Below are positions 29,534 through 45,905 of a stretch of DNA of 51,912 bases, one piece after another. Position 1 is the stretch's first letter, and every line of letters begins with the position of its first letter. The translations under genes and the position numbers were made by a program. The stretch comes from a virus (Duplodnaviria > Heunggongvirae > Uroviricota > Caudoviricetes), in the IMG/VR virus record IMGVR_UViG_2718218100_000010. The stretch is one strand, 5' to 3'. The notes under the pieces are model-generated. The model searched no databases. It was not told the origin of the DNA and saw nothing but the letters and a program-made list of their open reading frames with translations.

Positions 29534-31383
29534 TATGCTGCCGGTGCATTTATCTCCAGCACCAGACTTTCTATCTCAACGCCATACGCTGCATTTTTTG
29601 TAACATCCGTCAGCGTCAGCGCATTCAGCCCCAGTGTCAGACTGTCTTTTATAACCTGGAATGCCGGGCCAGCCACTCCATTCAGTTTCGGAGTAACCGT
29701 GGCACTGCCGGCGGTGAACACCAGCTCCAGCGTCTGCCAGTCGTTACCGTAATCGCCGAACTCCCCCAGCTTCGTGTTTCCGGCTTTCCTGTGATGCATC
29801 AGATTCACTCTGCCGTCAGTGGTCTGAGTGAAGTACGACATCAGGAACGGATTACCGGTACCCGTCATCGCCACACCATCAGGAACGGGAGCATCCGTAT
29901 ACAGATAAATCCCCAGCCCGAACTGATTGTTGGTCAGCGCGCCTGACAGGCGGAACTTACAGGTCAGTCTGCCGCCCTGTGTCAGCAGGGTAATTGCGTC
30001 ATCCACCGGATGCGTCAGGGACCAGGTTTTATTGCTCTGCCTGGTGATCTTAAATACACCATCTGACAACTGAATTCCGCCATCCTTAATGCTCCAGCCC
30101 TGCGCAGCAGCCTCTCCGTCTGCCGGCAGCAGGGAGATTGTGCGAACGGACGTATCTGCAGACGGACCCGATGGCGTGTTGCCGCCGGGCGAGGGTTTGA
30201 TTTCCGGTGCCTTACCACTGATGAAGGCTGAGGTGCGCCCGGCTGCGTTCAGAATAGCGGTTGCCAGACGATCCGGAATAATGCTCCTGCGCGCCCATGA
30301 ACTGAAATGTGTCGGGCGGTTTGATGATACCTGGTTTCCATTCGTTCTCGATGCCGCACCGTAATATCCTGATGCCGGAATATCCGGATCTTCTGCCGGC
30401 GCGTTAGTGGCGGTATTGACGCCGTTACCGTCTGTCATGAAGGGCACAAAATAAACGCCCTCACTCTCCCTGTTTTTATACCCGCCGTACACGGTGTCGT
30501 ACTGGGTAGCGTATGTATTTTTCCAGTAATACGTCGTGTCACCACAAATCCACGGCACATCTGCAGCACTGCCACCATGGCACTGCGCGTTAAACACGGA
30601 GAGGTCAGCACGAAACTGTGTCAGCATGGCTGTAAACAGCGCAGGTTGCTGTGCGTGGGTGGCGGCGCTCATGTCAAACTCACCCTGCATCCAGCAGACG
30701 GCCAGCAGAACGTTTTTGGGATTTTTCTGCAATGCCGCTTTTGTGCGGGAAATCAGATCCTGATATAACGGCTTGCCCCCCCCCCAGCGTGCCGAATCCT
30801 GACTGGCCCCCGTGGACTCGCTGAATGTCCCCTCCGCGCCCTGGGTAAATGCCGAACCACCACGACAGCATGGTACCAGCAGGATCCCCGCGTTATTCGG
30901 GATATACGGGAGCAGTTTTTTGGCAATATGTAAGCCCTGGCCGACACAGCCGTACTGCCCTTTGCTCAGGTCTGCCTTCGGATGATTCAGCGTACTCATA
31001 TCCTGCACATCATGCAGGCAGTGGTCGGCCGGAATAATATCGTTATATCTGTAGGCAGCCCCACCCGGCGTCACTGTACTGCGGCGCGCCAGCTGTTTAA
31101 TGCGCGGATCCGGAGCATCGTATGAATCCGGCAGCGGAAGCCCTTCACCGTAAGCCATGGCATTGGACTGCCCGGCCAGTACGATGACGTAGTACCAATC
31201 CGGCTCAGTTGCACCACTGACCACCACATCACCTTCTGCTGTAATCGCCTGCATCAGGGTATAAGGGGTTATGGCCACCGGACTACCAAACGGCTGCCAG
31301 CCCTCTTTCAGTTTGTGTGTCAGCTTTTCCGCAAGGTCTGACGGCGACGCCGCCCTGACAACATCATAATGTTTAAATGTCAT
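29533..31383 (-). CDS. Prophage sialate O-acetylesterase NanS-p-like, 616 aa
   Basis: SGNH-like GQSNAMAYG active-site motif; size and position between Q/tRNAs and holin as for nanS-p in Stx-type phages; GGGAGG RBS. Confidence 0.75.
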   Translation of the reverse strand: MTFKHYDVVRAASPSDLAEKLTHKLKEGWQPFGSPVAITPYTLMQAITAEGDVVVSGATEPDWYYVIVLAGQSNAMAYGEGLPLPDSYDAPDPRIKQLARRSTVTPGGAAYRYNDIIPADHCLHDVQDMSTLNHPKADLSKGQYGCVGQGLHIAKKLLPYIPNNAGILLVPCCRGGSAFTQGAEGTFSESTGASQDSARWGGGKPLYQDLISRTKAALQKNPKNVLLAVCWMQGEFDMSAATHAQQPALFTAMLTQFRADLSVFNAQCHGGSAADVPWICGDTTYYWKNTYATQYDTVYGGYKNRESEGVYFVPFMTDGNGVNTATNAPAEDPDIPASGYYGAASRTNGNQVSSNRPTHFSSWARRSIIPDRLATAILNAAGRTSAFISGKAPEIKPSPGGNTPSGPSADTSVRTISLLPADGEAAAQGWSIKDGGIQLSDGVFKITRQSNKTWSLTHPVDDAITLLTQGGRLTCKFRLSGALTNNQFGLGIYLYTDAPVPDGVAMTGTGNPFLMSYFTQTTDGRVNLMHHRKAGNTKLGEFGDYGNDWQTLELVFTAGSATVTPKLNGVAGPAFQVIKDSLTLGLNALTLTDVTKNAAYGVEIESLVLEINAPAA

Positions 31384-31426
31384 TATTCCTCCCGGCCGGG
31401 ATAGTGTATTAAATCAGATATGGAGT

Positions 31427-31471
31427 GGGCTGTAGTCCGGAAGCCTGAATGACACACGGGGACTACAGCCC
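31427..31471. promoter_or_regulatory. Perfect 12-bp inverted repeat with 21-bp spacer upstream of nanS-p
   Basis: gggctgtagtcc at 31427-31438 and ggactacagccc at 31460-31471, about 45 bp upstream of the nanS-p start. Confidence 0.5.
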
Positions 31472-31789
31472 AAGAAATGAAAAAAGGCCACGCAGTTGCG
31501 CAGCCTGATAAACCCTGGTTAAAATCCACACGATAACAACACAACAATATCAGTATCTCATGCTATTGCCCGAACCCATTCGGGCATTTTTTACCCATAA
31601 AAAAGCCCCTCCGGAGAGGGGCATGTTTGCATGCACATTCTTTTTCTTGCATGGTGCCGGGTGCCTCCCGGTGAATTCAGTATCAGCACCTGAATCCGCG
31701 ATTATCCCATATACCTGGTTGCTGATCGCCCCTCCGCACAGGGGGATTCACCATGCAGAAGTGTTTTTAATAAACAGCAAACAAAAAAA

Positions 31790-31957
31790 TCAAGCATTAT
31801 GCAGGCTGTTTCTTTTTATCACCGGCCACAGCAATACCACAATGCCGCAGACCAGCACCCCATCCGCCAGCACCGACATGATTCTGCTGGTGAAATCCAC
31901 CATCACCACCAGAAACAGCAGGAGTGCAGCCACAGCCAGGCGCAGTTTTACCGTCAC
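31790..31957 (-). CDS. Candidate 55-aa two-helix membrane protein, translationally coupled to the TerB-like gene
   Basis: GTG overlaps the TerB-like stop (GTGA) with GGAG upstream; hand translation VTVKLRLAVAALLLFLVVMVDFTSRIMSVLADGVLVCGIVVLLWPVIKRNSLHNA. Confidence 0.35.
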   Translation of the reverse strand: MTVKLRLAVAALLLFLVVMVDFTSRIMSVLADGVLVCGIVVLLWPVIKRNSLHNA

Positions 31958-32385
31958 AGGTGATTCTCCAGACGAAGACCCAGAACACCGGCAATCTCTT
32001 CCAGCACCTTGCGCTCTTCCGGCTCAATTTCGCCGTCTGCCTCCGCAATGGCCACCGCCACATCCAGCACATCTTCCGCTTCACGCGTATCGTGTTTCAC
32101 ATCCTCAATCTCGCGTAACGCGGCACGACGACCAATTTTAAAATTGGTATCCAGCTGACCGATAATAGTTGCGCTAATCGCATTAATTTCCGAGGTAAAC
32201 GCAGACAACGCAGGCTGATTACGTAAGACCTGTTCGATCTTCGCTTTCTCGGATGCCTCGCATTCACCATCTGCACAGGCCACCAGGTATGCAGCGTTAA
32301 TCACCGCCTGTGCCAGATCGCGTTTCTCAAACTTTTTAATTTCCGCTGCCGCTCTGCGGGTTTTCTTTTTGAAGATTCCAAACAT
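31954..32385 (-). CDS. TerB-like (tellurite-resistance TerB fold) protein, 143 aa
   Basis: Internal ATG of ORF 31954..32457 with AAGGAA RBS; acidic helical protein with ...AVINAAYLVACADGECEASEKAKIEQVL...AIAEADGEIEPEERKVLEEIAGVLGL pattern. Confidence 0.55.
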   Translation of the reverse strand: MFGIFKKKTRRAAAEIKKFEKRDLAQAVINAAYLVACADGECEASEKAKIEQVLRNQPALSAFTSEINAISATIIGQLDTNFKIGRRAALREIEDVKHDTREAEDVLDVAVAIAEADGEIEPEERKVLEEIAGVLGLRLENHL

Positions 32386-32512
32386 CGTGACGTTCCTTTG
32401 GGTGGGTGAGCCAACGCCCGGGAGCGATCTGCCCACAGAGAAAGTCACACTGACCACTCCGTAAGCTCACCCCCGAAAGGCTCTGTGGTTGATATGCGCC
32501 GGGCGTGGCGCG

Positions 32513-32540
32513 GATACAAAAAAGGCCGCCAATAGCGACC
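32513..32540 (-). terminator. Intrinsic terminator after the two-gene cassette
   Basis: Minus strand ggtcgc-tatt-ggcggcc (one G-U pair) followed by TTTTTTGTATC; homologous to 33110-33138. Confidence 0.5.
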
Positions 32541-32563
32541 TCAGTTACGGGATTATTCTGGGG

Positions 32564-32785
32564 TTAAACGACTGTTACTCCCCCCCAGACAAAATCATCA
32601 CTTCCTGTTCGATGCGAGCCATAGTGAACCTCGTACTTATCTCCCATCTTTCTTGCTTCCGTTTCTGCGTCTCCCTCTGTCGCAAAAACCCCAACAAGAT
32701 GCCAGGGCGAGCTTCTTACCACAGCCCAACCTTTAACCCATCCTTTGTTGTCCTTATCTTCCATTAACACTTCAGAAACAAACAT
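32564..32785 (-). CDS. Uncharacterised small protein, 73 aa (cassette gene 2)
   Basis: Strong RBS AAGGAGATAAAT-ATG; Trp-rich (GWVKGWAVV...PWHLVGVF...); no signal peptide. Confidence 0.5.
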   Translation of the reverse strand: MFVSEVLMEDKDNKGWVKGWAVVRSSPWHLVGVFATEGDAETEARKMGDKYEVHYGSHRTGSDDFVWGGVTVV

Positions 32786-32837
32786 ATTTATCTCCTTGTG
32801 GGTACCCGGAGATATTTTATGATTGCTCCCGGTCAGA

Positions 32838-33062
32838 TCAATAAAGTGGCTTCAATTTTGCCTTAATGATCAAATCAGGGTGATTGACGGAATCGTACAC
32901 CACCTCAATATTTTCATCCGTGGCGTCGATAAGATATTCTTTTACATAAGGACCTGTTGATTTTCCATGAAATACATCTTCAACAAGTACACTCTCCCCC
33001 TGAACAACACGAAAACTAACTTCTGTTTCGAACGGACCAATCGTCACCATCAGTTTTTTCAC
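32838..33062 (-). CDS. Uncharacterised small protein, 74 aa (cassette gene 1)
   Basis: GTG start preceded by AGGAGG; MKKLMVTIGPFETEVSFRVVQGESVLVEDVFHGKSTGPYVKEYLIDATDENIEVVYDSVNHPDLIIKAKLKPLY; no signal peptide. Confidence 0.5.
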   Translation of the reverse strand: MKKLMVTIGPFETEVSFRVVQGESVLVEDVFHGKSTGPYVKEYLIDATDENIEVVYDSVNHPDLIIKAKLKPLY

Positions 33063-33109
33063 ATAGCCTCCTGATAAGCACTCGATTTATTAGTTAATGG
33101 TGTAACGCA

Positions 33110-33138
33110 GATACAAAAAAGGCCCGCAAAAGCGAGCC
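33110..33138 (-). terminator. Intrinsic terminator after the tRNA cluster
   Basis: Minus strand ggctcgc-tttt-gcgggcc followed by TTTTTTGTATC. Confidence 0.55.
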
Positions 33139-33151
33139 AGGTAAATAAATA

Positions 33152-33228
33152 TGGCGCGTTGTACTGGATTCGAACCAGTGACCGATTGCTTAGAAGGCAA
33201 TTGCTCTGTCCGGCTGAGCTAACAACGC
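33152..33228 (-). tRNA. tRNA-Arg (anticodon UCU), 77 nt
   Basis: Cloverleaf folded by hand: acceptor GCGTTGT/ACAACGC, D-arm GCTC..GAGC, anticodon stem ATTGC/GCAAT with loop CTTCTAA, T-loop TTCGAAT, 3' GCCA. Confidence 0.85.
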
Positions 33229-33241
33229 AGGGTACGGATAA

Positions 33242-33318
33242 TGGACCGCCATCGAGGACTCGAACCCCGCGCAACCAGCTTCGAAGGCTGGCGCTCTATC
33301 CCGATGAGCTAATGGCGG
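33242..33318 (-). tRNA. tRNA-Arg (anticodon UCG), 77 nt
   Basis: Cloverleaf folded by hand: acceptor CCGCCAT/ATGGCGG, anticodon stem CCAGC/GCTGG with loop CTTCGAA, T-loop TTCGAGT, 3' TCCA. Confidence 0.8.
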
Positions 33319-33325
33319 TATGTGA

Positions 33326-33401
33326 TGGTGGCCCTTGCTGGATTTGAACCAGCGACCTGGCGATTATGAGTCGCTCGCTCTCACCACTGAGCTAAAGGGC
33401 C
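33326..33401 (-). tRNA. tRNA with CAU anticodon (Met, or Ile2 if lysidine-modified), 76 nt
   Basis: Acceptor GGCCCTT/AAGGGCC, anticodon loop CTCATAA, T-loop TTCAAAT, 3' ACCA; first tRNA after Q as in many lambdoid prophages. Confidence 0.8.
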
Positions 33402-33435
33402 GGGCGCAGAATAATAACGGTCCGTAATTAATTCC

Positions 33436-33465
33436 GCAATAAAAAACCCGCTCAATGGCGGGTTC
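33436..33465 (-). terminator. Candidate tR' late terminator (Q target) downstream of Q
   Basis: Minus strand cccgccattgagcggg followed by TTTTTT, between Q and the tRNA genes. Confidence 0.5.
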
Positions 33466-33547
33466 TGGTAAAGTTCATGCGCTTGGTTCGCCTCGCGATA
33501 CAGCTTTGCGAAGCATACCGGAATTGAAGCAGTTTATGCGTAAAAAA

Positions 33548-34090
33548 TCAAGCTATTTTTTGAGCAAATGATTCTCGCATGGGAATATATAGGGCATACT
33601 CAGCAACAGCCAACCAATTAGCAATTCGCTTTTCGCATGTGCTAAAACACCACTCAGGATGTGCATCATTTAGCAATTCAGCCATTTTGCGCTTAGTCAT
33701 CCCCCGACCTTCATACCGTTGCTGGAGGACACTAATCAATCCCGGATGTTCTGCCAGCACCTCACTTATAACCCGATCAACACATAACGCCTCTGCATCA
33801 GTACAATGCGCCAGCCAGCTCTTTTGCTTACCATTGATCATCTCTCGCAAAAACGCTTCCAGCTCAGGTTTCTCTATTCCCGCTTTTTTCATCCTCCGGA
33901 GCGCCTCGTTAATTGCCGTTTTTGTCAGCTTTTTAGAGGTCAGTAATTGGTTGAACATATTTCCCGTCTTACCGCCGCCAATATACGACCAACGCCCCCA
34001 CATACGCAGTTTCCCCTGGAGCCAGACACTTTCCAGCGTGGTGAGACGAAGGTGTTCCCCGCTTTTTCCTGTATTCGTTGGGTAAATCAT
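33548..34090 (-). CDS. Putative late-gene antiterminator Q, 180 aa
   Basis: Internal ATG (MIYPTNTGK...) with GGAGAAAGGAGGG RBS, overlapping the upstream stop (ATGA); last gene before tR'/tRNAs/late genes; assignment by position, not strong motif. Confidence 0.55.
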   Translation of the reverse strand: MIYPTNTGKSGEHLRLTTLESVWLQGKLRMWGRWSYIGGGKTGNMFNQLLTSKKLTKTAINEALRRMKKAGIEKPELEAFLREMINGKQKSWLAHCTDAEALCVDRVISEVLAEHPGLISVLQQRYEGRGMTKRKMAELLNDAHPEWCFSTCEKRIANWLAVAEYALYIPMRESFAQKIA

Positions 34091-34377
34091 AAATATCCCT
34101 CCTTTCTCCAGATTTCTTGTGTGCGAAAAACACCTTCTGCATGCATCAGGCGTAATTCTTCTTTGGTGTAATCGCTGGTTTTTACCCGCCCGTCGATTAA
34201 ATCGTGGCACGAGCTACAGGCAATCGCGGCCTGCATATCGTGTGGCTTTATCGCTGTTCCGCACGTTCCCGCCAGTCGGTAATGCGCCAGCACAGACGTT
34301 TCGGGATTGTGATTGCAGTAGCCAGGAATTCTGACCTGGCACATCTGGCCCCGCGCCGCTTTACGTAAATCCACCAT
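34087..34377 (-). CDS. Cys-rich small protein in the nin region (possible zinc-binding nuclease-like), 96 aa
   Basis: Cys/His-rich CNHNP...CSSCHDLIDG; position immediately upstream of Q. Confidence 0.45.
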   Translation of the reverse strand: MVDLRKAARGQMCQVRIPGYCNHNPETSVLAHYRLAGTCGTAIKPHDMQAAIACSSCHDLIDGRVKTSDYTKEELRLMHAEGVFRTQEIWRKEGYL

Positions 34378-34988
34378 TACGCAAACTCCAGCAGCTGCAC
34401 GGCCACATTTTCGACTTGTTCCGGAGAGGAAAATTTACGGAACAGAATCCAGTTCCACAGCACATTCAGTACAGATTTATAAACCTGCTGAAACTCGGTT
34501 TCGTCCATATTCGCAAACGCGATAGATTTCGCCCGACGCCCACGACTACCATCAGGATAAAGATGCTCGGTGTAAAATCCGGCCTGAATGGTTACCCACT
34601 CGCGGAAAGCCTCAAACGACTTTAGCAATGCTGTATCTCGGGTTCTGCGTGTCGCAACTGTATTCAGATATTGCTCTGCGGCTTCGCTCAGAGCTGGCGT
34701 ATGTTCCCGGCCTACTGATTCGCACAGATAATCAACGAAACCGGACACCAGTTTTCGCTCGCGAGGAGTGATCGCCCCACCGACCGGAGTCCAGTAATCG
34801 AATCCGAGTTGCAGAAGTTTGAAAAAACGCTTATGGAATGCGTAGTTACGAACGCGCTTAAAATCAGCGTGTATCCACTCGCCTATTTTGATTTGATGCA
34901 GAAAATCACAACTCTCCGGCGTCGCCGGGAGAAGTAATCCGGAAGAGGTTTGTTTGACCAGTTGTATATGCGCCATTGCTGTCTCCAA
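34377..34988 (-). CDS. Phage nin-region protein of unknown function, 203 aa
   Basis: Conserved position upstream of Q; overlapping stop/start with the downstream gene. Confidence 0.45.
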   Translation of the reverse strand: METAMAHIQLVKQTSSGLLLPATPESCDFLHQIKIGEWIHADFKRVRNYAFHKRFFKLLQLGFDYWTPVGGAITPRERKLVSGFVDYLCESVGREHTPALSEAAEQYLNTVATRRTRDTALLKSFEAFREWVTIQAGFYTEHLYPDGSRGRRAKSIAFANMDETEFQQVYKSVLNVLWNWILFRKFSSPEQVENVAVQLLEFA

Positions 34989-35035
34989 TGGCGCTGTAGG
35001 TTGCCAGTTGTTCAGGCTGGCTTACGAATTATAAC

Positions 35036-35209
35036 TCATTCCCGAACCACCTTGAAACCGAGCCTTTCCAGGTATTCAATGAATGCCTCGATAGATAAAA
35101 TCACATGATCATCAGGAATTAACGTTGTGTAGATAACGTCTCCATTCTCAACGCGCACAGCATAGAGGCCATTTTCACTAAAAATTTCACGCAATTCTTC
35201 GATTTTCAT
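35036..35209 (-). CDS. Candidate 57-aa acidic small protein
   Basis: GGAAGGA RBS 7 nt before the ATG; hand translation MKIEELREIFSENGLYAVRVENGDVIYTTLIPDDHVILSIEAFIEYLERLGFKVVRE; below track cutoff. Confidence 0.35.
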   Translation of the reverse strand: MKIEELREIFSENGLYAVRVENGDVIYTTLIPDDHVILSIEAFIEYLERLGFKVVRE

Positions 35210-35371
35210 CAACAGAATCCTTCCAGATAAATAGCACTCCCCTGTTCGGGGTCCATCCCTCTTCTCCCTGCGCGCTAATTAAGTGAATCGATTCTAGTCA
35301 GGCATACCAGCTAATCAACAAACCCTGGTCGGTTAAATAGAAGGATTGGCTAAAATTTACCCCATTAAAAT

Positions 35372-35395
35372 AAAAAACCCGCCGAAGCGGGTTTT
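35372..35395 (-). terminator. Bidirectional intrinsic terminator (copy 1 of an identical 23-nt repeat)
   Basis: aaaaaacccgccgaagcgggttt; identical 23-mer at 36214-36236. Confidence 0.6.
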
Positions 35396-35409
35396 CATTG
35401 GAAGCACCT

Positions 35410-35895
35410 TTAGTTTTGCTGTTCTATTTTAAGCTTGATAGTTTCATACAAAACAATAGTTGCGCCTGTTTTACATAATTCCCGGCTGTCATACGCGCGA
35501 GACCAATAACACAACCAGTTCTCGAGATCTTCTCGGGTATAGGTTTTGCAGGCCAGCCCCTCTGCCATTTCCACGATTTCATCGCCTGGTGCTGTTAACT
35601 CATAGCCATTCAACAACAAGAAGACGTAACCAGCCATCATAGCTGTTCGTTTGTTCGCATTAGCAAACGGATGATTCTGAATCAGACTTTCAATCAATAC
35701 CGATGCCAGTACAAACATGTCATTGATCTGTTCATACCATCGAACCATGCTGGGACGGGCCTGAGAAGAACTTAAGTTATCTGGACTCAGAACACCAACA
35801 GGTTCATCTGGTGTTTGAAGCTCAATTAAAAGGCGATTGATTTCAGTAAGATCATCAACCGAAAGATAGTGCACTCCTTCAACAATCTCAGCCAT
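35410..35895 (-). CDS. Doc-family (Fic-fold) toxin-like protein, 161 aa
   Basis: Doc-type active-site motif HPFANANKRTA; ATG MAEIVEG in frame with the track's TTG start at 35904. Confidence 0.65.
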   Translation of the reverse strand: MAEIVEGVHYLSVDDLTEINRLLIELQTPDEPVGVLSPDNLSSSQARPSMVRWYEQINDMFVLASVLIESLIQNHPFANANKRTAMMAGYVFLLLNGYELTAPGDEIVEMAEGLACKTYTREDLENWLCYWSRAYDSRELCKTGATIVLYETIKLKIEQQN

Positions 35896-35913
35896 AGAGC
35901 ACAATACCCATTA

Positions 35914-36093
35914 TTACACTTTTGAAAGTTCTTCCATTGCCTTCTCGTAACGAGAAAAACCGAAATCGAAAGCATTTTTCACCTGCTCACGATGCGTGCA
36001 ATTTTCATCAATAGCCGGGCGCGGAGCTGCCACAACGCTTTTATCGCGAGGGGGAATAGTCAATCGCGGGTGTTTTTTTAGTGCGTAGCTCAT
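35914..36093 (-). CDS. Candidate antitoxin partner of the Doc-like toxin, 59 aa (not Phd-like)
   Basis: Hand translation MSYALKKHPRLTIPPRDKSVVAAPRPAIDENCTHREQVKNAFDFGFSRYEKAMEELSKV; stop about 18 nt before the Doc ATG; imperfect inverted repeat aggctaatgttgttagcatagcct upstream. Confidence 0.4.
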   Translation of the reverse strand: MSYALKKHPRLTIPPRDKSVVAAPRPAIDENCTHREQVKNAFDFGFSRYEKAMEELSKV

Positions 36094-36213
36094 TGGGTGT
36101 ACCCTTACTTCTCCGTCCTGTTCTTTAACAAAAAATCAAGTCAATACAAAATTAGTCAGGCTAATGTTGTTAGCATAGCCTAATACCAATCGTATTCACA
36201 ACCACAGTACGTG

Positions 36214-36236
36214 AAAAAACCCGCCGAAGCGGGTTT
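36214..36236 (-). terminator. Intrinsic terminator after hok (copy 2 of the identical 23-nt repeat)
   Basis: aaaaaacccgccgaagcgggttt, identical to 35372-35394. Confidence 0.6.
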
Positions 36237-36303
36237 AGTGCGGGTGCGTTGAGGATGCCTGACACATGAGAGGTGGCGAGGGATTTCTCCCCCGCCTGGT
36301 CTC

Positions 36304-36459
36304 TTACTCCTCAGATTCGTAAGCTGTGAAGACAGCGACCTCCGTCTGGCCGGTTCGGATTCGTACCTCGCAGAGGTCTTTCCTCGTTACCAGTGCCGTC
36401 ACTATGACGGTTAAACAGATGACGATCAGGGCGATTAACATCGCCTTTTGCTGCTTCAT
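36304..36459 (-). CDS. hokD: Hok/Gef-family type I toxin, 51 aa (HokD/RelF-like)
   Basis: MKQQKAMLIALIVICLTVIVTALVTRKDLCEVRIRTGQTEVAVFTAYESEE; AAGGAG RBS; the track ORF 36304..36516 includes the upstream mok-like extension. Confidence 0.8.
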   Translation of the reverse strand: MKQQKAMLIALIVICLTVIVTALVTRKDLCEVRIRTGQTEVAVFTAYESEE

Positions 36460-36704
36460 AGCCTGCTTCTCCTTGCCTTTCGGCGCGTAAGAGGCTAACC
36501 TACATGTGCAAGTCATAGATATGGCCTCAGATTAATGTTAAGCGTCTTGCCGGACGCGTAATGTTAACTGGGGCTTTTCTCTATCTGCCGTTGGTGTTCA
36601 TGCCCGAGGCAGATAGCCTCAAGCACCCGCAGCAATTCTACTTAACTCTCGCTTTACCGCAAACCGTTTTTACCCGATATGGGAATTCCCATATCGTAAT
36701 GAAT

Positions 36705-36809
36705 TCAGTTCCCTAGTCGATCCATCAAAAACACAACCAGGCAGTAAACGCCCACAACAGCAATAACAGCCAGCGCACCTTCCATTGCCAGTGAAATATC
36801 ATCCGACAT
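36705..36809 (-). CDS. Candidate 34-aa hydrophobic peptide
   Basis: Strong SD AAAGGAGGGAAT-ATG; hand translation MSDDISLAMEGALAVIAVVGVYCLVVFLMDRLGN with a single TM helix. Confidence 0.35.
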   Translation of the reverse strand: MSDDISLAMEGALAVIAVVGVYCLVVFLMDRLGN

Positions 36810-36844
36810 ATTCCCTCCTTTGGTGTTAATCCCGGCGAACGTTT

Positions 36845-36928
36845 TTACCCCCACCGACAAATAACATATACTAAAAAAGCGATAGCCATAGCAACGCCTG
36901 TAATTGCAAATGCTTCAGGCCAGTTCAT
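36845..36928 (-). CDS. Candidate 27-aa hydrophobic peptide, translationally coupled to the upstream 220-aa gene
   Basis: GGAGGT RBS; ATG overlaps the upstream stop (ATGA); hand translation MNWPEAFAITGVAMAIAFLVYVICRWG. Confidence 0.3.
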   Translation of the reverse strand: MNWPEAFAITGVAMAIAFLVYVICRWG

Positions 36929-37587
36929 TGGCGCACCTCCTGCGGCGGTTCTGGTAGCGGCATCCAGTCGGTTACATTGCGGCTCTGTGTTTCGAAAAAT
37001 TCATCACCATCACGGACTACATCAAAAAACTCACCGTCTCGATATTGCGCATAAAGAACGAATGCGCCATCACATAAAATAATTACGTGCTGACCGTCAT
37101 CCGGCATTCGCTCACTACAGCTTATCCAACCATCCAGAGTTACCGGATAGTTGGTTGACGTTTCCGAGATTTCCCGAAAATTATTGGTTGACGAATCTTT
37201 ATTTTCCCGAAAGTTTCCGGACTGAAGCATGGCTTCGCGGCAATCGTTCCAGCCTGTAGCGTATGCAGCCGCTTTGCTGCTGCCTTCAACTGGCGCATCC
37301 TGCCAATACATTTCTTCCGGCACTATCGGCGCTGGAGGGGCGGCAAATAGATATCCGCCAAAGTCAGGAAGCTCTCCAATGGCCTGTACGAACTTTTGTT
37401 TGCCTACGTCAACTCCTAATGGGTAATGAGCTATAATCTTTGCCACCGGCTCTGCTTCCAGCGATACCAGTGCAATTCGTGCCAGTTCTTCCGCTTCTTC
37501 TGCTGGCAGTACAACGTTGCTACCCGGTCCGTATGTTTCGCGCCACTGCTTGATTGTCAGCAGTCGCCCTTTGGTAATAGTGATCAT
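36925..37587 (-). CDS. Phage protein of unknown function (DUF551-like C-terminus?), 220 aa
   Basis: Acidic C-terminal region ...DGEFFDVVRDGDEFFETQSRNVTDWMPLPEPPQE; family assignment from memory only. Confidence 0.5.
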   Translation of the reverse strand: MITITKGRLLTIKQWRETYGPGSNVVLPAEEAEELARIALVSLEAEPVAKIIAHYPLGVDVGKQKFVQAIGELPDFGGYLFAAPPAPIVPEEMYWQDAPVEGSSKAAAYATGWNDCREAMLQSGNFRENKDSSTNNFREISETSTNYPVTLDGWISCSERMPDDGQHVIILCDGAFVLYAQYRDGEFFDVVRDGDEFFETQSRNVTDWMPLPEPPQEVRQ

Positions 37588-38099
37588 GCCGCGTTTCCTT
37601 CTTTCTTATTAACAATCACACCGTCATATATTTCATTAAGGTGCCCTCTCAACTCCATGCGCCTTAATGCAGATAACATGTAATCGCATTCAACCTGCTT
37701 ATTCCCAGTAAATGGCTTATCGTCAGGATTACCCCAACAGCAATTACCCTTGGGCCACCCATGTACTTTCCGTACTCTTCCGTTAACAACGTGAAGTAAT
37801 CCCCAGCCAGGTGGTAAATCCTCAATTGAAATAATTCCCGGCTCACTAATAAAGAATCGCCAGTCGCCCATTCCAAGAGACGGATTTTTACGAAAACGCT
37901 TTTTTCTATCTGCCAACAAGTCAGCACGAGAACATTTCGCCTCTATCAGGCATGATGCTGAATTTCTGAATCCCATAGCATCTGGCTGTTCTCCGGTACT
38001 GGTTACAGCTATAAAGCGGTCATGAAAACAAACCTTGAACCCGTTGCGCTTAAGGAACTTGTACGCAATCTGACAGAGTTCGCGGTGTGTTAACGCCAT
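37584..38099 (-). CDS. Hypothetical protein, possible PD-(D/E)xK-type nuclease, 171 aa
   Basis: ATG at 38099 (MALTHRELCQ) with strong SD AAAGGAGAG; FHDRF ... LIEAKCS resembles a D...ExK motif. Confidence 0.4.
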   Translation of the reverse strand: MALTHRELCQIAYKFLKRNGFKVCFHDRFIAVTSTGEQPDAMGFRNSASCLIEAKCSRADLLADRKKRFRKNPSLGMGDWRFFISEPGIISIEDLPPGWGLLHVVNGRVRKVHGWPKGNCCWGNPDDKPFTGNKQVECDYMLSALRRMELRGHLNEIYDGVIVNKKEGNAA

Positions 38100-38100
38100 A

Positions 38101-38986
38101 TCACTCTCCTTTGATGCGAATGCCAGCAAGCCAGTTTCTTATGCCGATATATTCAGCGTTCCTGAAACCGCTTTTTACATATATAAATGGCAAGCGAAGA
38201 TTGTGACCATTGACTGCCAGGTAGTCTTTACAACCCTGTTCGGTGAAACAGCAGGTAACGAATTCATCAATATCTTTCACAGCAACGCGCCGCCATTTTT
38301 CTGGTGGCTCTCGAAAGTTTTCATGAAGTAGCTCGAGACGACGACTATGGCGTTTATTGGCTTCATTGCCATCTTCGTCAACCCAGACAATCCGGTCATG
38401 GTCATAATCAGCATCAACAACGATTTCGCGCTTTTGATACACACAAAACATGGGATCTGACGTTATTCGATTGTCCTGTGTTCGAATATTTTCACCGATG
38501 ATGCCAAACGAATCTGGTGCAGATTTTGTCTGCATCTCTTCGATACGTTCAGCCATCGCAGCACACTCTTCAAAGTTGCTTAATGCTTTTCGCTCCCATT
38601 CGGCGCATTGTTTTTCCAGTTCTGCTATGCGCTTACTTCCATCCGCGATTACTCCCTCGTAATATTCACGCTGCTCGTTGAGTTTTGATTTTGCTGCTTC
38701 AAGCTCAACGCGCAGCTTCCCTACCGTTAGCGCAATATCCTCGTTCTCCTGGTCGCGGCGTTTGATGTATTTGCTGGTTTCTTTCCCGTTCATCTAGTAG
38801 TGCCAGCACGGTTTCTGGTCCGGCCAGAAATTTGAAGGCGTTGAGCGCATCAATATCCACACCGTAATCCTTAAGTTCCTGTTCAGTTAACAAATCATCA
38901 TCAACTGGCAACATTAACAGGCGTTCCATTGCCGGGATTGCACGTTCTGCCGCCTCACGCAACTCCTGATAGTCAATCTCGCTCAC
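38101..38986 (-). pseudogene. Ea22-like early protein, apparently frameshifted (ORFs 38705..38986 and 38101..38793 overlap by 89 nt)
   Basis: N-terminal module VSEIDYQELREAAE...VLALLDE parallels the intact paralogue at 39465-40193, then continues as coiled coil in another frame. Confidence 0.4.
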
Positions 38987-39468
38987 TGGTTGCCCTCCTT
39001 CATAAAAATAATCCAGTGGGTCTTGTCACCCTTTCCTGTTCGTTGACCGATAACAGGCTTTCTGTCGGTCAGTGCCAATATTTGGCGAACAGGTATTTGC
39101 GTTTCATTCCATTTAAAAATCAGAACGCCGTATGGCCACAACACACGAAAGGCTTCTTTAAATCCCTGCCGCAAATCATCACGCCAGGTATCTTTATTCA
39201 GCCGTCCATATTTCTTTCCCATCCAGGCGTTATCACCAACACGCTCAAGATGCGGAGGGTCGAATACAACAACCGGAAACGATGCGTCTGCAAATGGTAA
39301 TGCACGAAAATCTGCTATCAGGTCAGGGCTAATTATCAGCCGTCGTCCATCACACAATGTGTGCTCTTCCTTTCTGATATCGCTAAATATCGCCCGGTCG
39401 TCCTTCTTATCGAACCAGAACATGCGACTGCCACAGCACATGTCGAGGATTGCTGCATGTAAAGTCAC
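38983..39468 (-). CDS. Small orphan DNA methyltransferase (amino-MTase DPPH motif), 161 aa
   Basis: Motif I-like ILDMCCGS and motif IV FDPPH; GTG start overlapping the upstream stop in the GGAGGCAACCAGTGA junction. Confidence 0.65.
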   Translation of the reverse strand: MTLHAAILDMCCGSRMFWFDKKDDRAIFSDIRKEEHTLCDGRRLIISPDLIADFRALPFADASFPVVVFDPPHLERVGDNAWMGKKYGRLNKDTWRDDLRQGFKEAFRVLWPYGVLIFKWNETQIPVRQILALTDRKPVIGQRTGKGDKTHWIIFMKEGNQ

Positions 39469-40193
39469 TGGTTGCCTCCTTTGCTAATCTGTTCCGCCCA
39501 TTCTTCAAGGGATTTCTCCGCATATTCACCAGACAGGCCATCAATCGGATGCGCTTCATTAGCCAACTCTTCTTTCGCTGACAAAATCATGCGTGTAACG
39601 TCGAAAACTTCACGCAAAGACTTATTGATAAATCCGTGATTGAACGCAGCAGCAAGACGGCTGGCGGTATAGTTAATCCCCTCGTTGCGTGCTTCCGCAC
39701 GAATTTCAGCCAGAAAAGCATCGGTAGCTGGAGTTTCGCTGTGGTGTAGGGCATCGTTGATAATCATTGCAGCAACACCAGCCTGCCCTGCATCCGTGAC
39801 CGACACATGCTCAAGAGTTACGGCCATTGCGTGTTTCAGTCCGGCGTTCTCTGCCACCAGCGCCGCGAGATTAGTCTCAAGCTCTGCAATACGGCACATA
39901 GCATCAATATTTGTGTCTTCCAGCCGCTTAATTTCATCCAGTAGTGCCAGCGCAACATTTGGATTAAAAGCAGCAATAAATTCAGCGTTTGCATAAGCCT
40001 GAGCATCTGATTCAATCAGGCAGTTAACATGACATTCCGCAATCACGCCACCGGGTTCTCCTTTCCATTTTTGACAAACAAAAACTCCTGTTAAATTGCC
40101 GTGCTGGTTAACAGATGTATGCCCTACGATGTAGCTTCCTTTAGTTGCTTTCTCTGCCTTTTCACGCAGTGCCTGGTAGTCAATCTTGCTCAC
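39465..40193 (-). CDS. Ea22-like early-region protein, about 242 aa
   Basis: GTG start ([15 protein letters not shown]) preceded by GGAGGCAACCA; coiled-coil middle; track ORF extends to 40223. Confidence 0.5.
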
Positions 40194-40932
40194 TGGTTGC
40201 CTCCTGGCAAAGCTGGGCGACAATATCGCGATATTTATTCAGCTCCCGCAGCGCGACACAGACTCGCTCCCATTTCCGGATATCACTTTTCGCCCGACGC
40301 AGTTCGCGGTTTGCCTGTCGCAGCGATGGCAGAACCAGATTATCCACTCGCTTCTCAAGCGGCTGCACAATGTCTGCCACAGTTTCTGTTTTAATATCTT
40401 CCTGTGTTGCAGCTTCCTGTCCCGGTAACGCAGCACCTGCTGGCTGAGGAAAGGCCTTACCATCACTTTCCGTTACCAGCGCGGCTTTCGGCTCTGCTGG
40501 TAAATTATCGCCCGGCATGCAGTAACGAAATTTACCGTTCTGATTAACGCGTGCCAGCCGCCCCGTTGCGGTTACCACCGCCAGCGTGGAAGCAACCTTG
40601 CGAGTACTGACACCGAACTTACCCGCCAGTTCCTCACACGTTTTAGCCCCATCCTGACCGATAAACTCAATCATCATGTCTGCGGTAACTTTTTGTTCGA
40701 CCTCCCCGGTCAGCATATCCTGTGCTTCAGATTTTACTGGCCGCTCTTCGGTTACCCGGGATTCACCTTCGCCAGCCAGAAACCAGGTGTGACCAGTTTT
40801 ATCAACGACGCCATTTCTTTTGAGTTCCCACAGCTCGTTGACAGCCTCTTCACGACTGATATCAAGTCGCGCAGCCAGTTCTACCGACGTGGCTTTTCCC
40901 ATTGCTTTCAGTGCGTCAAATACAGTTTCCAT
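40180..40932 (-). CDS. Hypothetical protein with N-terminal winged-helix-like segment, 250 aa
   Basis: ATG at 40932 ([30 protein letters not shown]) with GGAGG RBS; directly downstream of the DnaC-like gene. Confidence 0.45.
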
Positions 40933-43362: not shown

Positions 43363-43827
43363 ATGAGAAGAAAACGCGAAGAAATCGCATCGCCGGAAGC
43401 TACGCAACGTCTGCGCGCAATCTGGGATGCAAAAAAAAGAGAGCTCAAACTGACTCAGGAGCTTGCTGCCGAGCTAATGGGTTTTGAGGCGCAATCTGCG
43501 GTTAGCCATTATCTCAACGGAAAGGCTCCACTTAATACTGATGCGGCATTAAAATTCGCTGTATTACTAAGAGTTAAGCCTGAAGAGTTGAGGCCTGATT
43601 TAGCTGATCTGATGAATTACGTCCGTTCCTCAGGAACTTATGACGAAAGTTTCGAAGGCGAAGGTTGGCGGATGGTTAACAAGCAACAAGCTGATTTACT
43701 AGATCTTTTTGATATCCTTCCCGAATCAGAAAAAGCAAAACTAATCGAAAGACTTAAAGGTCAGAATGAACTCTACAAAGAAGCATTTGAAAATATGCTG
43801 GCAGCTCAAAAACGCATGAAGAAATAG
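43363..43827 (+). CDS. racR: Prophage repressor (RacR-like HTH), 154 aa
   Basis: N-terminal HTH ...LKLTQELAAELMGFEAQSAVSHYLNG...; divergent to the cro-like gene; terminator hairpin aaccgccatttttggcggttttttt at ~43848-43872. Confidence 0.65.
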   Translation: MRRKREEIASPEATQRLRAIWDAKKRELKLTQELAAELMGFEAQSAVSHYLNGKAPLNTDAALKFAVLLRVKPEELRPDLADLMNYVRSSGTYDESFEGEGWRMVNKQQADLLDLFDILPESEKAKLIERLKGQNELYKEAFENMLAAQKRMKK

Positions 43828-44062
43828 CTCCCACCATCTCGTAACTAAACCGCCATTTTTGGCGGTTTTTTTGTCCCCTCCGCCCGCCCCCGCCTTACTT
43901 TTTATCAAAAAAACACTAAAAATTTCATTAGGATAGTACATTTTTATCAACGAAATGCATATTTGTGTTGATCATTAATATGAACATAACTAATATTATT
44001 ACAGAAGCAGCACGGCGCTGTAGGTTTTAGTTCCGCCACCCGGCGTTAAAGGGAGAGATAAA

Positions 44063-44197
44063 ATGGTGCATTACGAAGTAGTTCAGTATTTGATGGATTG
44101 TTGCGGTATCACTTACAGCCAAGCTGTACAGGCTCTACGCAGCAACGACTGGGATCTCTGGCAGGCAGAAGCCGCTATATGCAGCAACAAGATGTGA
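44063..44197 (+). CDS. ydaG: Small protein YdaG-like, 44 aa
   Basis: RBS agggagag; hand translation MVHYEVVQYLMDCCGITYSQAVQALRSNDWDLWQAEAAICSNKM. Confidence 0.45.
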   Translation: MVHYEVVQYLMDCCGITYSQAVQALRSNDWDLWQAEAAICSNKM

Positions 44198-44207
44198 GAT
44201 TCGCAAA

Positions 44208-44360
44208 ATGCAAAAAATCGACCTCGGCAACAACGAATCCCTAGTGTGTGGCGTGTTCCCCAACCAGGATGGAACGTTCACCGCCATGACGTATACCAAA
44301 AGCAAAACATTTAAAACTGAAACAGGCGCACGTCGCTGGCTTGCCAAAAATACCAGCTAA
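44208..44360 (+). CDS. ydaF: Small protein YdaF-like, 50 aa
   Basis: Hand translation MQKIDLGNNESLVCGVFPNQDGTFTAMTYTKSKTFKTETGARRWLAKNTS; weak RBS. Confidence 0.4.
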   Translation: MQKIDLGNNESLVCGVFPNQDGTFTAMTYTKSKTFKTETGARRWLAKNTS

Positions 44361-45082
44361 ACCATTTATTGGATTAATTCAATATTCTTGCTGTAGGGGT
44401 ATAGCCGAGGCCACCAAAGCCCGGAGGTGGTGAAATAAAACCGGGCACAACACGAAGGCGCATTTCCGGTATCCATAAAGAGTCGGTCTTGTCTGTCAAA
44501 TTTAAATGGTGGGAGTGCGCCTCCGGTTGTGAATAACAACACTGCTGTGTGTAGTCTTGGCGGCATCAGTTTTTTCTTGAAGTTCGACTGATGTCCGCCC
44601 TTTTTAAAGTGAATTTTGTGATGCGGTGAATGCGGCTAAGCGCACGCGGAACAGTTAAAAAGCTATTGTCCTTCGTAGCAGAGTTATGGGTGAAATATCC
44701 GGCGTTAATTGTTAACTGGTTAACGTCACCTGGAGGCACCAGGCACCGCATCAACAAAGTTCACTTCAGTGATGAAAGGTGAGAGAAAATGTTGAATGTA
44801 GCTATTGAAAACCAGAACGGGTGGAATTATAGTGCACCTGCACCTCATAAAACGGGTGCCGGGATTTGCACCCCGATGATCACTAGAGCGCATAACCGCG
44901 CCAAAGCGGTTTTTTTATGCGTAAAGCGCAGCCACATTCAGATTATGGTGGGGCGTATGGGGCCGTTTTCGGGCGGGCCGGATTCTCTAGTGACCGGTAG
45001 TGCAAACCCTGTACGTCTCACCACCCATGAGATTTGCACCTCCGGTGGTGAGTTTACCAACTTATCACTAGAGGCTGCCATC
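44361..45082 (+). other. Structured non-coding leader upstream of the rha-like gene
   Basis: No convincing ORF; hairpin gcccgg..ccgggc at ~44419-44446; GTTAACTGGTTAAC at 44711-44724; intrinsic terminator aaccgc-gccaaa-gcggtt+T7 at ~44894-44918; direct repeats gatttgcacc...atcactagag. Confidence 0.4.
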
Positions 45083-45637
45083 ATGGCTACTATCCCTACC
45101 CTTTCTCACCCTGACGTAACCATCGAAAATGGTCGTGCTGTCACTACGTCTGTTGCAGTTGCAGAGTTTTTCCGCAAGCTGCATAAAAACGTCATTCAAA
45201 AAATTGAAGCTCTGGAATGTTCCTCAGAATTCACTGAGCTTAATTTTAAGCCAAGTGAATACACCGACTCAACCGGGCGCAAACTCCCAATGTACCAAAT
45301 CACCAAAAACGGCTTCGTTTTCCTGGTGATGGGTTTCACTGGCAAAAAAGCCGCTGCATTCAAAGAGGCCTACATCGCTGAGTTCGACCGCATGGAAGCA
45401 GAGCTACGCCAGAATAATACCACTCCCACAAACAAAATCATTCCGGGCGATGGGCGCACTCTGGTTGTTCGCTTCGACAAATTCGGCAACGTCGAATTCA
45501 CTGAAACCGTTCCTGATGGCGCTCTCGTCTGTACCCTGGACACTTTCCGCCTTTATCTGGAGAAACAGGGCTGGACTCTTGTAAACCGAAGCGCAATTAA
45601 AAATATGACCGTCGAGCAGTTGCTGAGTATTAAATAG
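45083..45637 (+). CDS. Rha-family phage regulatory protein, 184 aa
   Basis: ATG at 45083 with GAGG upstream; Rha-domain pattern ...VTTSVAVAEFFRKLHKNVIQKIE...ITKNGFVFLVMGFTGKKAAAFKEAYIAEFDRME. Confidence 0.65.
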   Translation: MATIPTLSHPDVTIENGRAVTTSVAVAEFFRKLHKNVIQKIEALECSSEFTELNFKPSEYTDSTGRKLPMYQITKNGFVFLVMGFTGKKAAAFKEAYIAEFDRMEAELRQNNTTPTNKIIPGDGRTLVVRFDKFGNVEFTETVPDGALVCTLDTFRLYLEKQGWTLVNRSAIKNMTVEQLLSIK

Positions 45638-45683
45638 TTTTCTGGAATTTTCTTAATACGAGAAATTTATTAAGGAGATAATT

Positions 45684-45905
45684 ATGATTGCTCATCACTT
45701 CGGAACTGATGAAATACCACGTCAGTGTGTGACTCCTGGCGATTATGTTCTTCATGAAGGCCGGACATATATCGCCTCGGCAAACAATATTAAAAAGCGA
45801 AAACTTTATATTCGTAGCCTGACTACAAAAACATGCATTACTGACTGCATGATTAAAGTCTTCCTCGGTCGTGATGGTTTACCTGTAAAGGCGGAGTCAT
45901 GGTGA
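45684..45905 (+). CDS. kilR: KilR-like cell-division inhibitor, 73 aa
   Basis: [32 protein letters not shown]...; position upstream of ydaE/racC/recE as in Rac. Confidence 0.7.

Follow-up and report, generated by a model that had tools for sequence, protein, structure and literature searches.

In the immunity systems of phages P1 and P4, a processed RNA (C4 in P1, CI in P4) pairs with sites downstream of it, blocks translation of the first open reading frame (ORF) and allows Rho to terminate transcription. RNase P releases the mature C4 or CI RNA from a longer precursor. Specificity reportedly resides in the loop sequences of these RNAs, which Citron and Schuster are said to have recognised in 1990 as the basis of P1/P7 heteroimmunity. 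In P4, as Forti and co-workers reportedly described in 1999, translation of the eta ORF from an upstream promoter, said to be the late promoter PLL, makes the transcripts insensitive to immunity. The present work concerns a related element in the IMG/VR virus record IMGVR_UViG_2718218100_000010, namely positions 44361-45082 of a stretch of 51,912 nucleotides (hereafter the window, meaning that whole stretch) and the Rha-family gene that follows. In prophage Gifsy-1, transcripts from the isrK promoter either stop, giving the small RNA (sRNA) IsrK, or read through as a translationally silent isrK-orf45-anrP mRNA; IsrK, which binds Hfq, activates in trans the translation of the downstream antirepressor mRNA, and processing of the long transcript gives STnc1160, a stable RNA encoded downstream of IsrK (PMC4825925).

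The feature studied here is real, and its kind is already understood: it is an IsrK/C4 immunity cassette, so far unannotated, which controls a gene of the Rha type and adjoins a Rac kilR leader. Judged from its sequence, the interval is very probably a composite, in which the Rac kilR leader (44386-44766) is followed, from about 44767 to about 45671, by a cassette of the P1 immI/P4/Gifsy-1 isrK type with a proposed antisense switch. An earlier note on the same DNA had taken the interval for one structured 720-bp leader; we find instead the Rac leader and, beside it, a cassette that is complete in itself and has a promoter of its own. Moderately new is one point only, that an open, otherwise unconstrained reading frame across the RNA genes is maintained throughout the family.

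An IsrK/C4 cassette ahead of a Rha-family gene

The window comes from an Escherichia coli of the Shiga-toxin type, in which it forms a Rac-like lambdoid prophage; its positions 44200-45700 are 100% identical to NZ_CP027544.1. On the plus strand, the order is a RacR-like repressor gene (43363-43827), a ydaG-like ORF, ydaF (44208-44360), the studied interval, a coding sequence (CDS) named "Rha family" (44789-45637), kilR, ydaE and recE. Similarity to the kilR leader ends at 44766 and returns about 15 nt before the kilR ATG; thus, the cassette (about 44767-45671) is an insertion. Its parts are as follows.

44789-45637, plus strand: long nested ORF of 282 amino acids, candidate bypass form resembling P4 eta (ORF list; Prokaryotic Genome Annotation Pipeline, PGAP)
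44805-44833, plus strand: predicted sigma-70 promoter (TTGAAA, 17-nt spacer, TATAGT)
44840-44916, plus strand: IsrK-like sRNA gene, equivalent of P4 seqA (Rfam RF01394, isrK)
44863-44872, plus strand: target site a1, GATTTGCACC, with the core TTTGCAC at 44865, exact complement of a'
44879-44888, plus strand: target site b1, ATCACTAGAG, with the core TCACTAGAG at 44880, exact 9-nt complement of b'
44894-44918, plus strand: intrinsic terminator of IsrK, also attenuator of the cassette transcript (terminator scan and isrK model)
44941-45028, plus strand: C4-type antisense RNA gene, equivalent of P1 c4, P4 CI and Gifsy-1 STnc1160 (Rfam RF01695)
45031-45040, plus strand: target site a2 on the read-through mRNA, GATTTGCACC, with TTTGCAC at 45033, complement of a'
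45064-45074, plus strand: target site b2, with ATCACTAGAG at 45064-73 and TCACTAGAG at 45065, complement of b'
45083-45637, plus strand: Rha-family antirepressor-like cargo gene of 184 amino acids, short form under C4 control (Pfam Phage_pRha)

The earlier note had placed a regulatory RNA upstream of the ATG at 45083, and a covariance-based search against Rfam bears this out twice. The isrK model matches over its full length (positions 1-77) with 68.6 bits (gathering score 50, E 1e-12), and the C4 model, likewise over its full length (1-87), with 78.1 bits (gathering score 45, E 1e-13). The predicted fold of each RNA is that of its family; the C4-like RNA reaches -41.6 kcal/mol (z = -3.1), and the IsrK-like sRNA consists of two 5' hairpins, the target sites a1 and b1, and an intrinsic terminator at its end. 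The promoter at 44805-33 agrees with the consensus at 10 of 12 positions, which makes it the best promoter-like site by consensus match in 43800-45750, and its hexamers align with TTGAC or TTGAT and TATATT or TACACT of related loci. The transcription start that it predicts, at about 44840, is the first base of the isrK match. An internal terminator at about 44894-44918, suspected from the outset, is present and is that of IsrK: its stem occupies 44894-44911 (a 6-bp stem in the terminator scan), its T run extends to 44918, and it coincides with the terminator hairpin of the Rfam model. Of the earlier view of the region as an attenuator or sRNA leader, the terminator ending a short IsrK-like sRNA stands, but the main regulator would be a C4-type antisense RNA acting in trans with its IsrK partner rather than a plain attenuator.

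The cargo gene, in its short form, matches Pfam Phage_pRha with an E value of 2e-31, and its matches among the PHROG families are Rha-like regulators and the anti-repressor families phrog_373 and phrog_63 (E 7e-29 and 1e-17). Its ATG at 45083, preceded by GAGG and proposed before as a well-placed start, proves to be a conserved one, aligned with the cargo start in 46 related loci, with P4 kil and with the annotated CDS start in GenBank record LC710660, in which isrK and C4 are already annotated ahead of it. Conservation extends over its first 10-12 codons (MATIPTLSHPD/E; window 45083-45118; P4 8365-8330) even among cargo genes that are not otherwise related, P4 kil being one of them. The boundary at which cassettes recombine therefore lies inside the cargo ORF. 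Recognition of the cassette would explain how a lysogen can carry, behind a constitutive promoter, an antirepressor-like gene and possibly also the toxic kilR-recE genes that follow it.

The C4-type RNA and its target sites

The direct repeats that had drawn attention to this region are real, and are the two C4 target pairs, a1/b1 and a2/b2. Within the C4-like RNA, positions 44985-93 form the b' loop, CTCTAGTGA, and 45000-06 the a' segment, GTGCAAA. Since the Rfam matches exceed their gathering scores and each repeat has its exact complement in a C4 loop, repeats and terminator are more than chance. The second of the b sites, b2, overlaps the GAGG Shine-Dalgarno sequence (45071-74), which stands 8 nt before the ATG at 45083, and the b':b2 duplex of 10 nt (TCACTAGAGG, 45065-74, with one G-U pair) includes GAGG.

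Modules of this type are common: 218 phage records contain one, among them those of Stx1 and Stx2 phages, ST64B, SfV, cdtI, P88, Gifsy-1 and a Hafnia phage, and 120 more loci came from viral contigs by a pattern scan. An isrK match followed by a C4 match at the same spacing was found in 16/16 fetched phage loci, and the pair also occurs in P4. After three false hits and near-duplicates had been dropped, the alignment comprised 47 sequences. In these sequences, pairing reaches 97% in the a1:a' helix, where 6 of the 7 pairs show compensatory changes, and 94% in the b1:b' helix, where 8 of 9 do. Both-side changes occur at 14/16 pairs and account for 403 cells, as against 119 +/- 11 in shuffled data, and pairing falls to about 40% when the partner is slid by one to three columns. 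The internal helices of C4 also co-vary; in helix 6, compensatory changes affect all five of the five pairs.

The spacing of the a2 and b2 sites is variable, and these sites were therefore tested sequence by sequence. Counted on the MAFFT alignment, b2 was 41% paired, a figure affected by the variable spacing and replaced by a per-sequence duplex search. In this search, the cognate a':a2 duplex is 7 nt long in 44 of the 46 non-redundant loci and 8 nt in the other two, while the cognate b':b2 duplex has a mean length of 10.3 nt and ends in the Shine-Dalgarno sequence, mostly 8-10 nt before the ATG. Both sites are satisfied in 96% of cognate pairs and in 7% of non-cognate combinations. Matching largely confined to cognate partners means that the family consists of many specificity types which recombine freely, a behaviour known for the P1/P7 c4 heteroimmunity. 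So many freely recombining a/b types suggest how several prophages in the genome of one Shiga-toxin-producing E. coli avoid cross-talk between their switches.

How the switch may operate

From the arrangement of these parts, and from what is established in P1, P4 and Gifsy-1, a mode of action can be proposed. The constitutive promoter at 44805-33 would start transcription at about 44840, and part of the transcripts would stop at 44894-44918, giving an IsrK-like sRNA that carries a1 and b1. The remainder would read through, and the C4-like RNA (44941-45028) would be cut out of them, presumably by RNase P as in P1 and P4. The single-stranded a' and b' segments of C4 would then pair with a2 and b2 on the read-through mRNA, b' covering the rha Shine-Dalgarno sequence, so that translation of rha would be blocked and the putatively antirepressor-like Rha protein would not be made. 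The untranslated RNA would be ended by Rho, again on the model of P1 and P4, which would keep the cassette promoter from driving the kilR-recE genes downstream. IsrK, having the same target sequences, may act as a decoy that competes for C4, whether as a free RNA or within the long transcript. Finally, ribosomes on transcripts from the upstream early promoter could enter at the ATG at 44789, cross the RNA genes and pass into rha, thereby escaping the block in the manner of P4 eta.

A reading frame kept open through the RNA genes

The 282-residue ORF from 44789 that the earlier note had started from is borne out as 44789-45637, and PGAP calls it with these limits in the identical genome. Its ATG stands 16 nt upstream of the -35 hexamer, with an AAGGTGA motif 8 nt before it, and the ORF crosses both RNA genes in frame with the ATG at 45083. 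Two further in-frame ATGs, at 44945 and 44957 (transcript positions +106 and +118), correspond to the orf45 AUGs of Gifsy-1 (+107 and +119). The orf45-like ORF has no stop here and runs on into rha as a fusion, which is the commoner layout among E. coli loci. In the protein, Pfam Phage_ASH (PF10554) matches residues 14-108 (E 2.6e-15) and Phage_pRha residues 119-203; the former region is exactly the stretch of promoter, isrK, C4 and a2/b2.

Selection on this stretch can be examined at two levels. Among 19 gap-free sequences, the entropy at codon positions 1, 2 and 3 is 0.614, 0.619 and 0.604, with no third-position bias, and this equal variability indicates that the extension peptide is not under amino-acid selection and that conservation is at the RNA level. 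The frame itself, on the other hand, is conserved. From the first base of IsrK to the cargo ATG, the cargo frame is free of stops in 12/17 loci and in 32/43 non-redundant loci, while the other two frames contain a mean of 1.8 and 3.7 stops over the same stretch. In the gap-free group of 243 nt, column shuffling leads one to expect 12.4 +/- 2.6 stops, and none is observed. Likewise, 214 distinct variants of 13 sub-segments contain no stop in the cargo frame, as compared with 45 and 73 in the other two. The suggestion of the earlier note that the first 98 codons belong to a non-coding leader is probably not simply correct, stops being strictly avoided.

These observations are consistent with a nested gene, whose chances we put at about even and which would complement the antisense switch rather than replace it. 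The 98-codon extension would be translated on transcripts from the upstream early promoter to give an N-terminally extended Rha protein, by a route that, like P4 eta, is insensitive to immunity; ribosomes would melt the IsrK terminator and the C4 fold and bypass the blocked Shine-Dalgarno sequence, so that it is translation, and not the peptide, that would be selected. Besides the avoidance of stops and the AAGGTGA motif, the indels of the lambdoid group point this way, being mostly multiples of three (module lengths 243, 246 and 240 nt), as does an in-frame ATG upstream of the -35 hexamer in 75/101 loci, which usually shares an ATGA overlap with the ORF before it. The layout of P4 is the same, with ORF 8812-8168 running through seqA/isrK (8692-8615) and CI/C4 (8507-8420) into the 65-codon kil ORF, with a 197-codon version from 8761. 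The lengths of 65 and 197 codons are those that we take to belong to kil and eta. On the other side, the loci are related by descent and recombination, so that the open-frame counts are not independent; an upstream in-frame start is missing in Oslovirus-type Stx phages, Gifsy-1 and P88-like phages; and transcripts from upstream must first pass the DicF-like terminator described below.

We put forward tentatively, as quite possible, the wider proposal that the frame through the IsrK and C4 genes is selected to remain open in most cassettes and lets ribosomes of the early operon override the antisense block, which would extend the P4 eta mechanism to lambdoid prophages in their hundreds, Stx phages among them. 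In that case, the Pfam "Ash" entry would represent no protein domain, but only the translation of two RNA genes selected for the absence of stops, and a frame conserved without its peptide would mean DNA with two roles, as RNA genes and as a passage for ribosomes. In phage P88 (1317-1763), an ORF from the ATG at the 5' end of C4, of a kind shared by P88-like phages, is open for about 148 codons and overlaps, out of frame, the annotated 76-residue derepression-protein gene (PF25738).

The Rac-type kilR leader

The left part of the interval belongs to an older segment of the prophage, outside the immunity cassette, and contains the following elements.

44386-44766, plus strand: Rac-type kilR leader, about 90% identical to Rac of E. 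coli K-12 MG1655
44546-44606, plus strand: DicF-like RNA element, a terminator-like hairpin (stem 44559-44599, then a T run)
44612-44758, plus strand: STnc100-like structured element (Rfam RF02076, 40.6 bits), ending in two adjacent hairpins

In K-12 Rac, the counterpart of 44386-44766 is the unannotated intergenic region between sieB and kilR; sieB is absent from the window, and the cassette sits between leader and kilR. Related phages have the same leader ahead of dicB or kilR. The DicF-like element scores 42.8 bits with Rfam RF00039 (gathering score 48), agreeing in the hairpin and differing in the 5' 12 nt, which form the seed; it folds with -19.5 kcal/mol (z = -4.1), and DicF is annotated at the homologous place in one related phage record. 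Just upstream of this hairpin, the segment 44396-44545 is conserved (about 97% identity to K-12 Rac) and folds with -51.3 kcal/mol (z = -2.5 against shuffles), with no Rfam family.

The STnc100-like element covers positions 22-154 of the 206 in its model (gathering score 47). The arms of hairpin 1 occupy 44701-08 (5') and 44720-27 (3') and enclose a loop at 44709-19; hairpin 2 (CCTGG-AGGCA-CCAGG, 44729-43) is conserved and directly abuts hairpin 1. Hairpin 1 was read by eye from the comparison of the window with K-12 Rac, between which there are two compensatory changes. The two-hairpin motif recurs in the true STnc100 copy of the window and in other loci, where the sequences of hairpin 1 are unrelated; RNAalifold applied to eight two-hairpin sequences recovered only hairpin 2, hairpin 1 being out of register between groups. 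The motif was also considered as a put-type antiterminator of the HK022 kind, and this was rejected, the motif not being found in HK022 24000-40751. The true STnc100 match (31593-31785, minus strand, 145.8 bits) adjoins a match to the anti-GcvB sRNA AgvB (plus strand, 96.5 bits), the pair spanning 31531-31785. Parts of the STnc100-like segment are also found in plasmid prophages of the P1 family: D6 and P7 match 44622-44750 at 81-86% identity, and P1 matches exactly over 28 nt only (44622-44649).

Alternative explanations

The frame from 44789 might instead encode a genuine two-domain Ash-Rha protein, the RNA-family matches being incidental. PGAP and many phage annotators call the long ORF, and its Phage_ASH and Phage_pRha matches agree with this. 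We nevertheless regard such a protein as very improbable, given that the three codon positions are equally variable, that conservation tracks the RNA helices with their compensatory changes, and that a promoter and a terminator lie inside the supposed domain. PF10554, moreover, also matches the obsolete P4 "cI protein" ORF over CI RNA, whereas the real P4 epsilon (Ash) is PF25738, and in orf45 of Gifsy-1 the nucleotide sequence is conserved while the amino-acid sequence varies (PMC4825925). The P4 ORF over CI RNA (8168-8584) is still named "cI gene product / transcriptional repressor" in the RefSeq record, and PF10554 has been used as an epsilon marker in published work, though matching that ORF. 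Comparable mis-annotation recurs in many phage records, under the names "Ash family protein", "transcriptional regulator" and "peptidase". That the cassette is an inactive remnant in a defective prophage would fit the frameshift in the neighbouring ydaU of the identical genome and the frequent defectiveness of Rac-type prophages. Against this stands the intactness of every part (promoter and terminator, C4 and isrK at full length, and rha as an unbroken ORF), together with the perfect match of its own a/b specificities at all four target sites, and we consider a remnant highly unlikely. The antisense switch joined to a Rac leader has points against it as well. RefSeq annotates only the 282-residue protein at the locus, and no RNA genes; the DicF and STnc100 matches in the leader both fall below their Rfam gathering scores; and the fusion of the orf45-like frame to rha, in place of an end at the antirepressor start as in Gifsy-1, means that translational control may differ. 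In addition, C4/CI is a repressor in P1 and P4, but IsrK is an activator in Gifsy-1, so that any division of labour between the two RNAs here would be carried over from those systems.

A further suggestion of the earlier note was that a regulator site containing GTTAAC is shared between the leader, the cos region and the surroundings of hok. The motifs all exist, as GTTAACTGGTTAAC at 44711-24, GTTAACTG...TGGTTAAC at 25281-25301 in the cos region and AATGTTAACTGG at 36560-71, but the last lies within the hok/sok RNA match at 36454-36628 (minus strand) and not upstream of hok. A single DNA-binding regulator acting at all three places would be in keeping with the excess of GTTAAC in the window (22 copies, as against 8.7 +/- 3.0 expected), 11 of the copies falling within 35-45 kb, and with ATGTTAACTG, the most repeated 10-mer of the window, which has six copies, four at cos and the others at 36561 and 40021. 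The count of the extended motif also gave an excess, with four copies of TGTTAACTGG as against 0.08 expected, but many 10-mers recur likewise: 397 different ones occur at three or more separate places in the window, compared with about 122 in random sequence, so that a shared 10-mer singled out in hindsight carries little weight. Of the GTTAAC pair at 44711-24, the first copy lies in the loop of hairpin 1 and the second mostly in its 3' arm. In K-12 Rac, GTTGCA replaces the second and the opposite arm changes from GGCGTTAA to GACTGTAA, so that all eight pairs are kept. The hok/sok model places the hok copy within a stem, at paired columns whose sequence differs between family members, and the copy at 44710 lacks the leading A of the cos motif. 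Such a regulator is thus most improbable, and the GTTAAC copies of the leader are better read as parts of an RNA hairpin. The cos-side intergenic region (25279-25402) contains five sites of the type ATGTTAAC(T/C), in both orientations, and these may be binding sites of terminase or of another protein.

Other elements in the window and in related loci

Several further RNA genes were recognised in the window. The antitoxin sRNA RalA of the RalR/RalA pair is present at full length at 50178-50356 (minus strand, 218 bits), as fits a Rac-type left arm; the hok/sok-type locus mentioned above (36454-36628, minus strand) matches the sok model with 108 bits; and three tandem tRNA genes lie at 33155-33401 on the minus strand. 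Among the viral contigs, L040 (9785-11196), L030, L078 and L081 carry two or three IsrK-C4 cassettes in tandem, spaced by 656 nt in L030, L040 and L078 and by 869 nt in L081, and at least two of the copies in L040 differ in sequence. In Oslovirus-type Stx phages, a match to the sRNA-Xcc1 family (79.6 bits) was found downstream of the antirepressor gene (L009 2223-2306, L017 2224-2307).

Comparison with known systems

The leader resembles that of dicF-dicB in Qin, as well as the sieB-kilR region of K-12 Rac, in having a DicF-like hairpin and then a structured spacer ahead of the gene for a cell-division inhibitor. It differs from the Qin leader in that its DicF match is below threshold and has a different 5' seed.

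The cassette shares with the isrK-orf45-anrP locus of Gifsy-1 in Salmonella (Hershko-Shalev et al. 2016) the succession of a promoter, an IsrK with intrinsic terminator, a C4-like RNA and an antirepressor gene (here a putative one), both Rfam families being found in both loci, and the helix mapped in Gifsy-1 (G28-C162, G31-C159) corresponds to a1:a'. The a/b specificity is different, however, and the 45-codon orf45 of Gifsy-1 stops where anrP starts, whereas the frame of the window is fused to rha. The Gifsy-1 locus lies downstream of Q, while the cassette of the window is in the early-left operon of a Rac-like prophage. BLASTP detects no significant similarity between AnrP and the Rha protein of the window, and on sequence grounds the two cargo genes are analogous, not orthologous.

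With immI of P1 and P7 (a1 b1, c4, a2 b2, icd, ant1/2), the window has in common the C4 family of Rfam, the two flanking target pairs, a b2 site over the ribosome-binding site of the first ORF, and, downstream, an antirepressor gene, which in the window is a putative one. It has no separate icd ORF, b2 covering the start of the cargo itself, and unlike immI it has an intrinsic terminator between b1 and C4, so that IsrK arises as an sRNA of its own; the c4-a1b1 model of Rfam reaches only 18.8 bits at this locus.

The P4 immunity region (PLE-seqA-CI RNA-seqC-kil, with the nested eta) differs in a seqA-CI distance greater by about 100 nt and in its cargo, which is a 65-residue Kil followed by replication genes rather than Rha; P4 controls its own replication operon and no antirepressor. 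Yet isrK and C4 matches follow one another in the same order in both; the Shine-Dalgarno and start context AGGAGGCTGCCATCATGGCTAC is near-identical, with MATTLTPSHPE in P4 beside MATIPTLSHPD in the window; and in both a long ORF, matching Phage_ASH, starts upstream of the immunity promoter and runs in frame through the two RNA genes.

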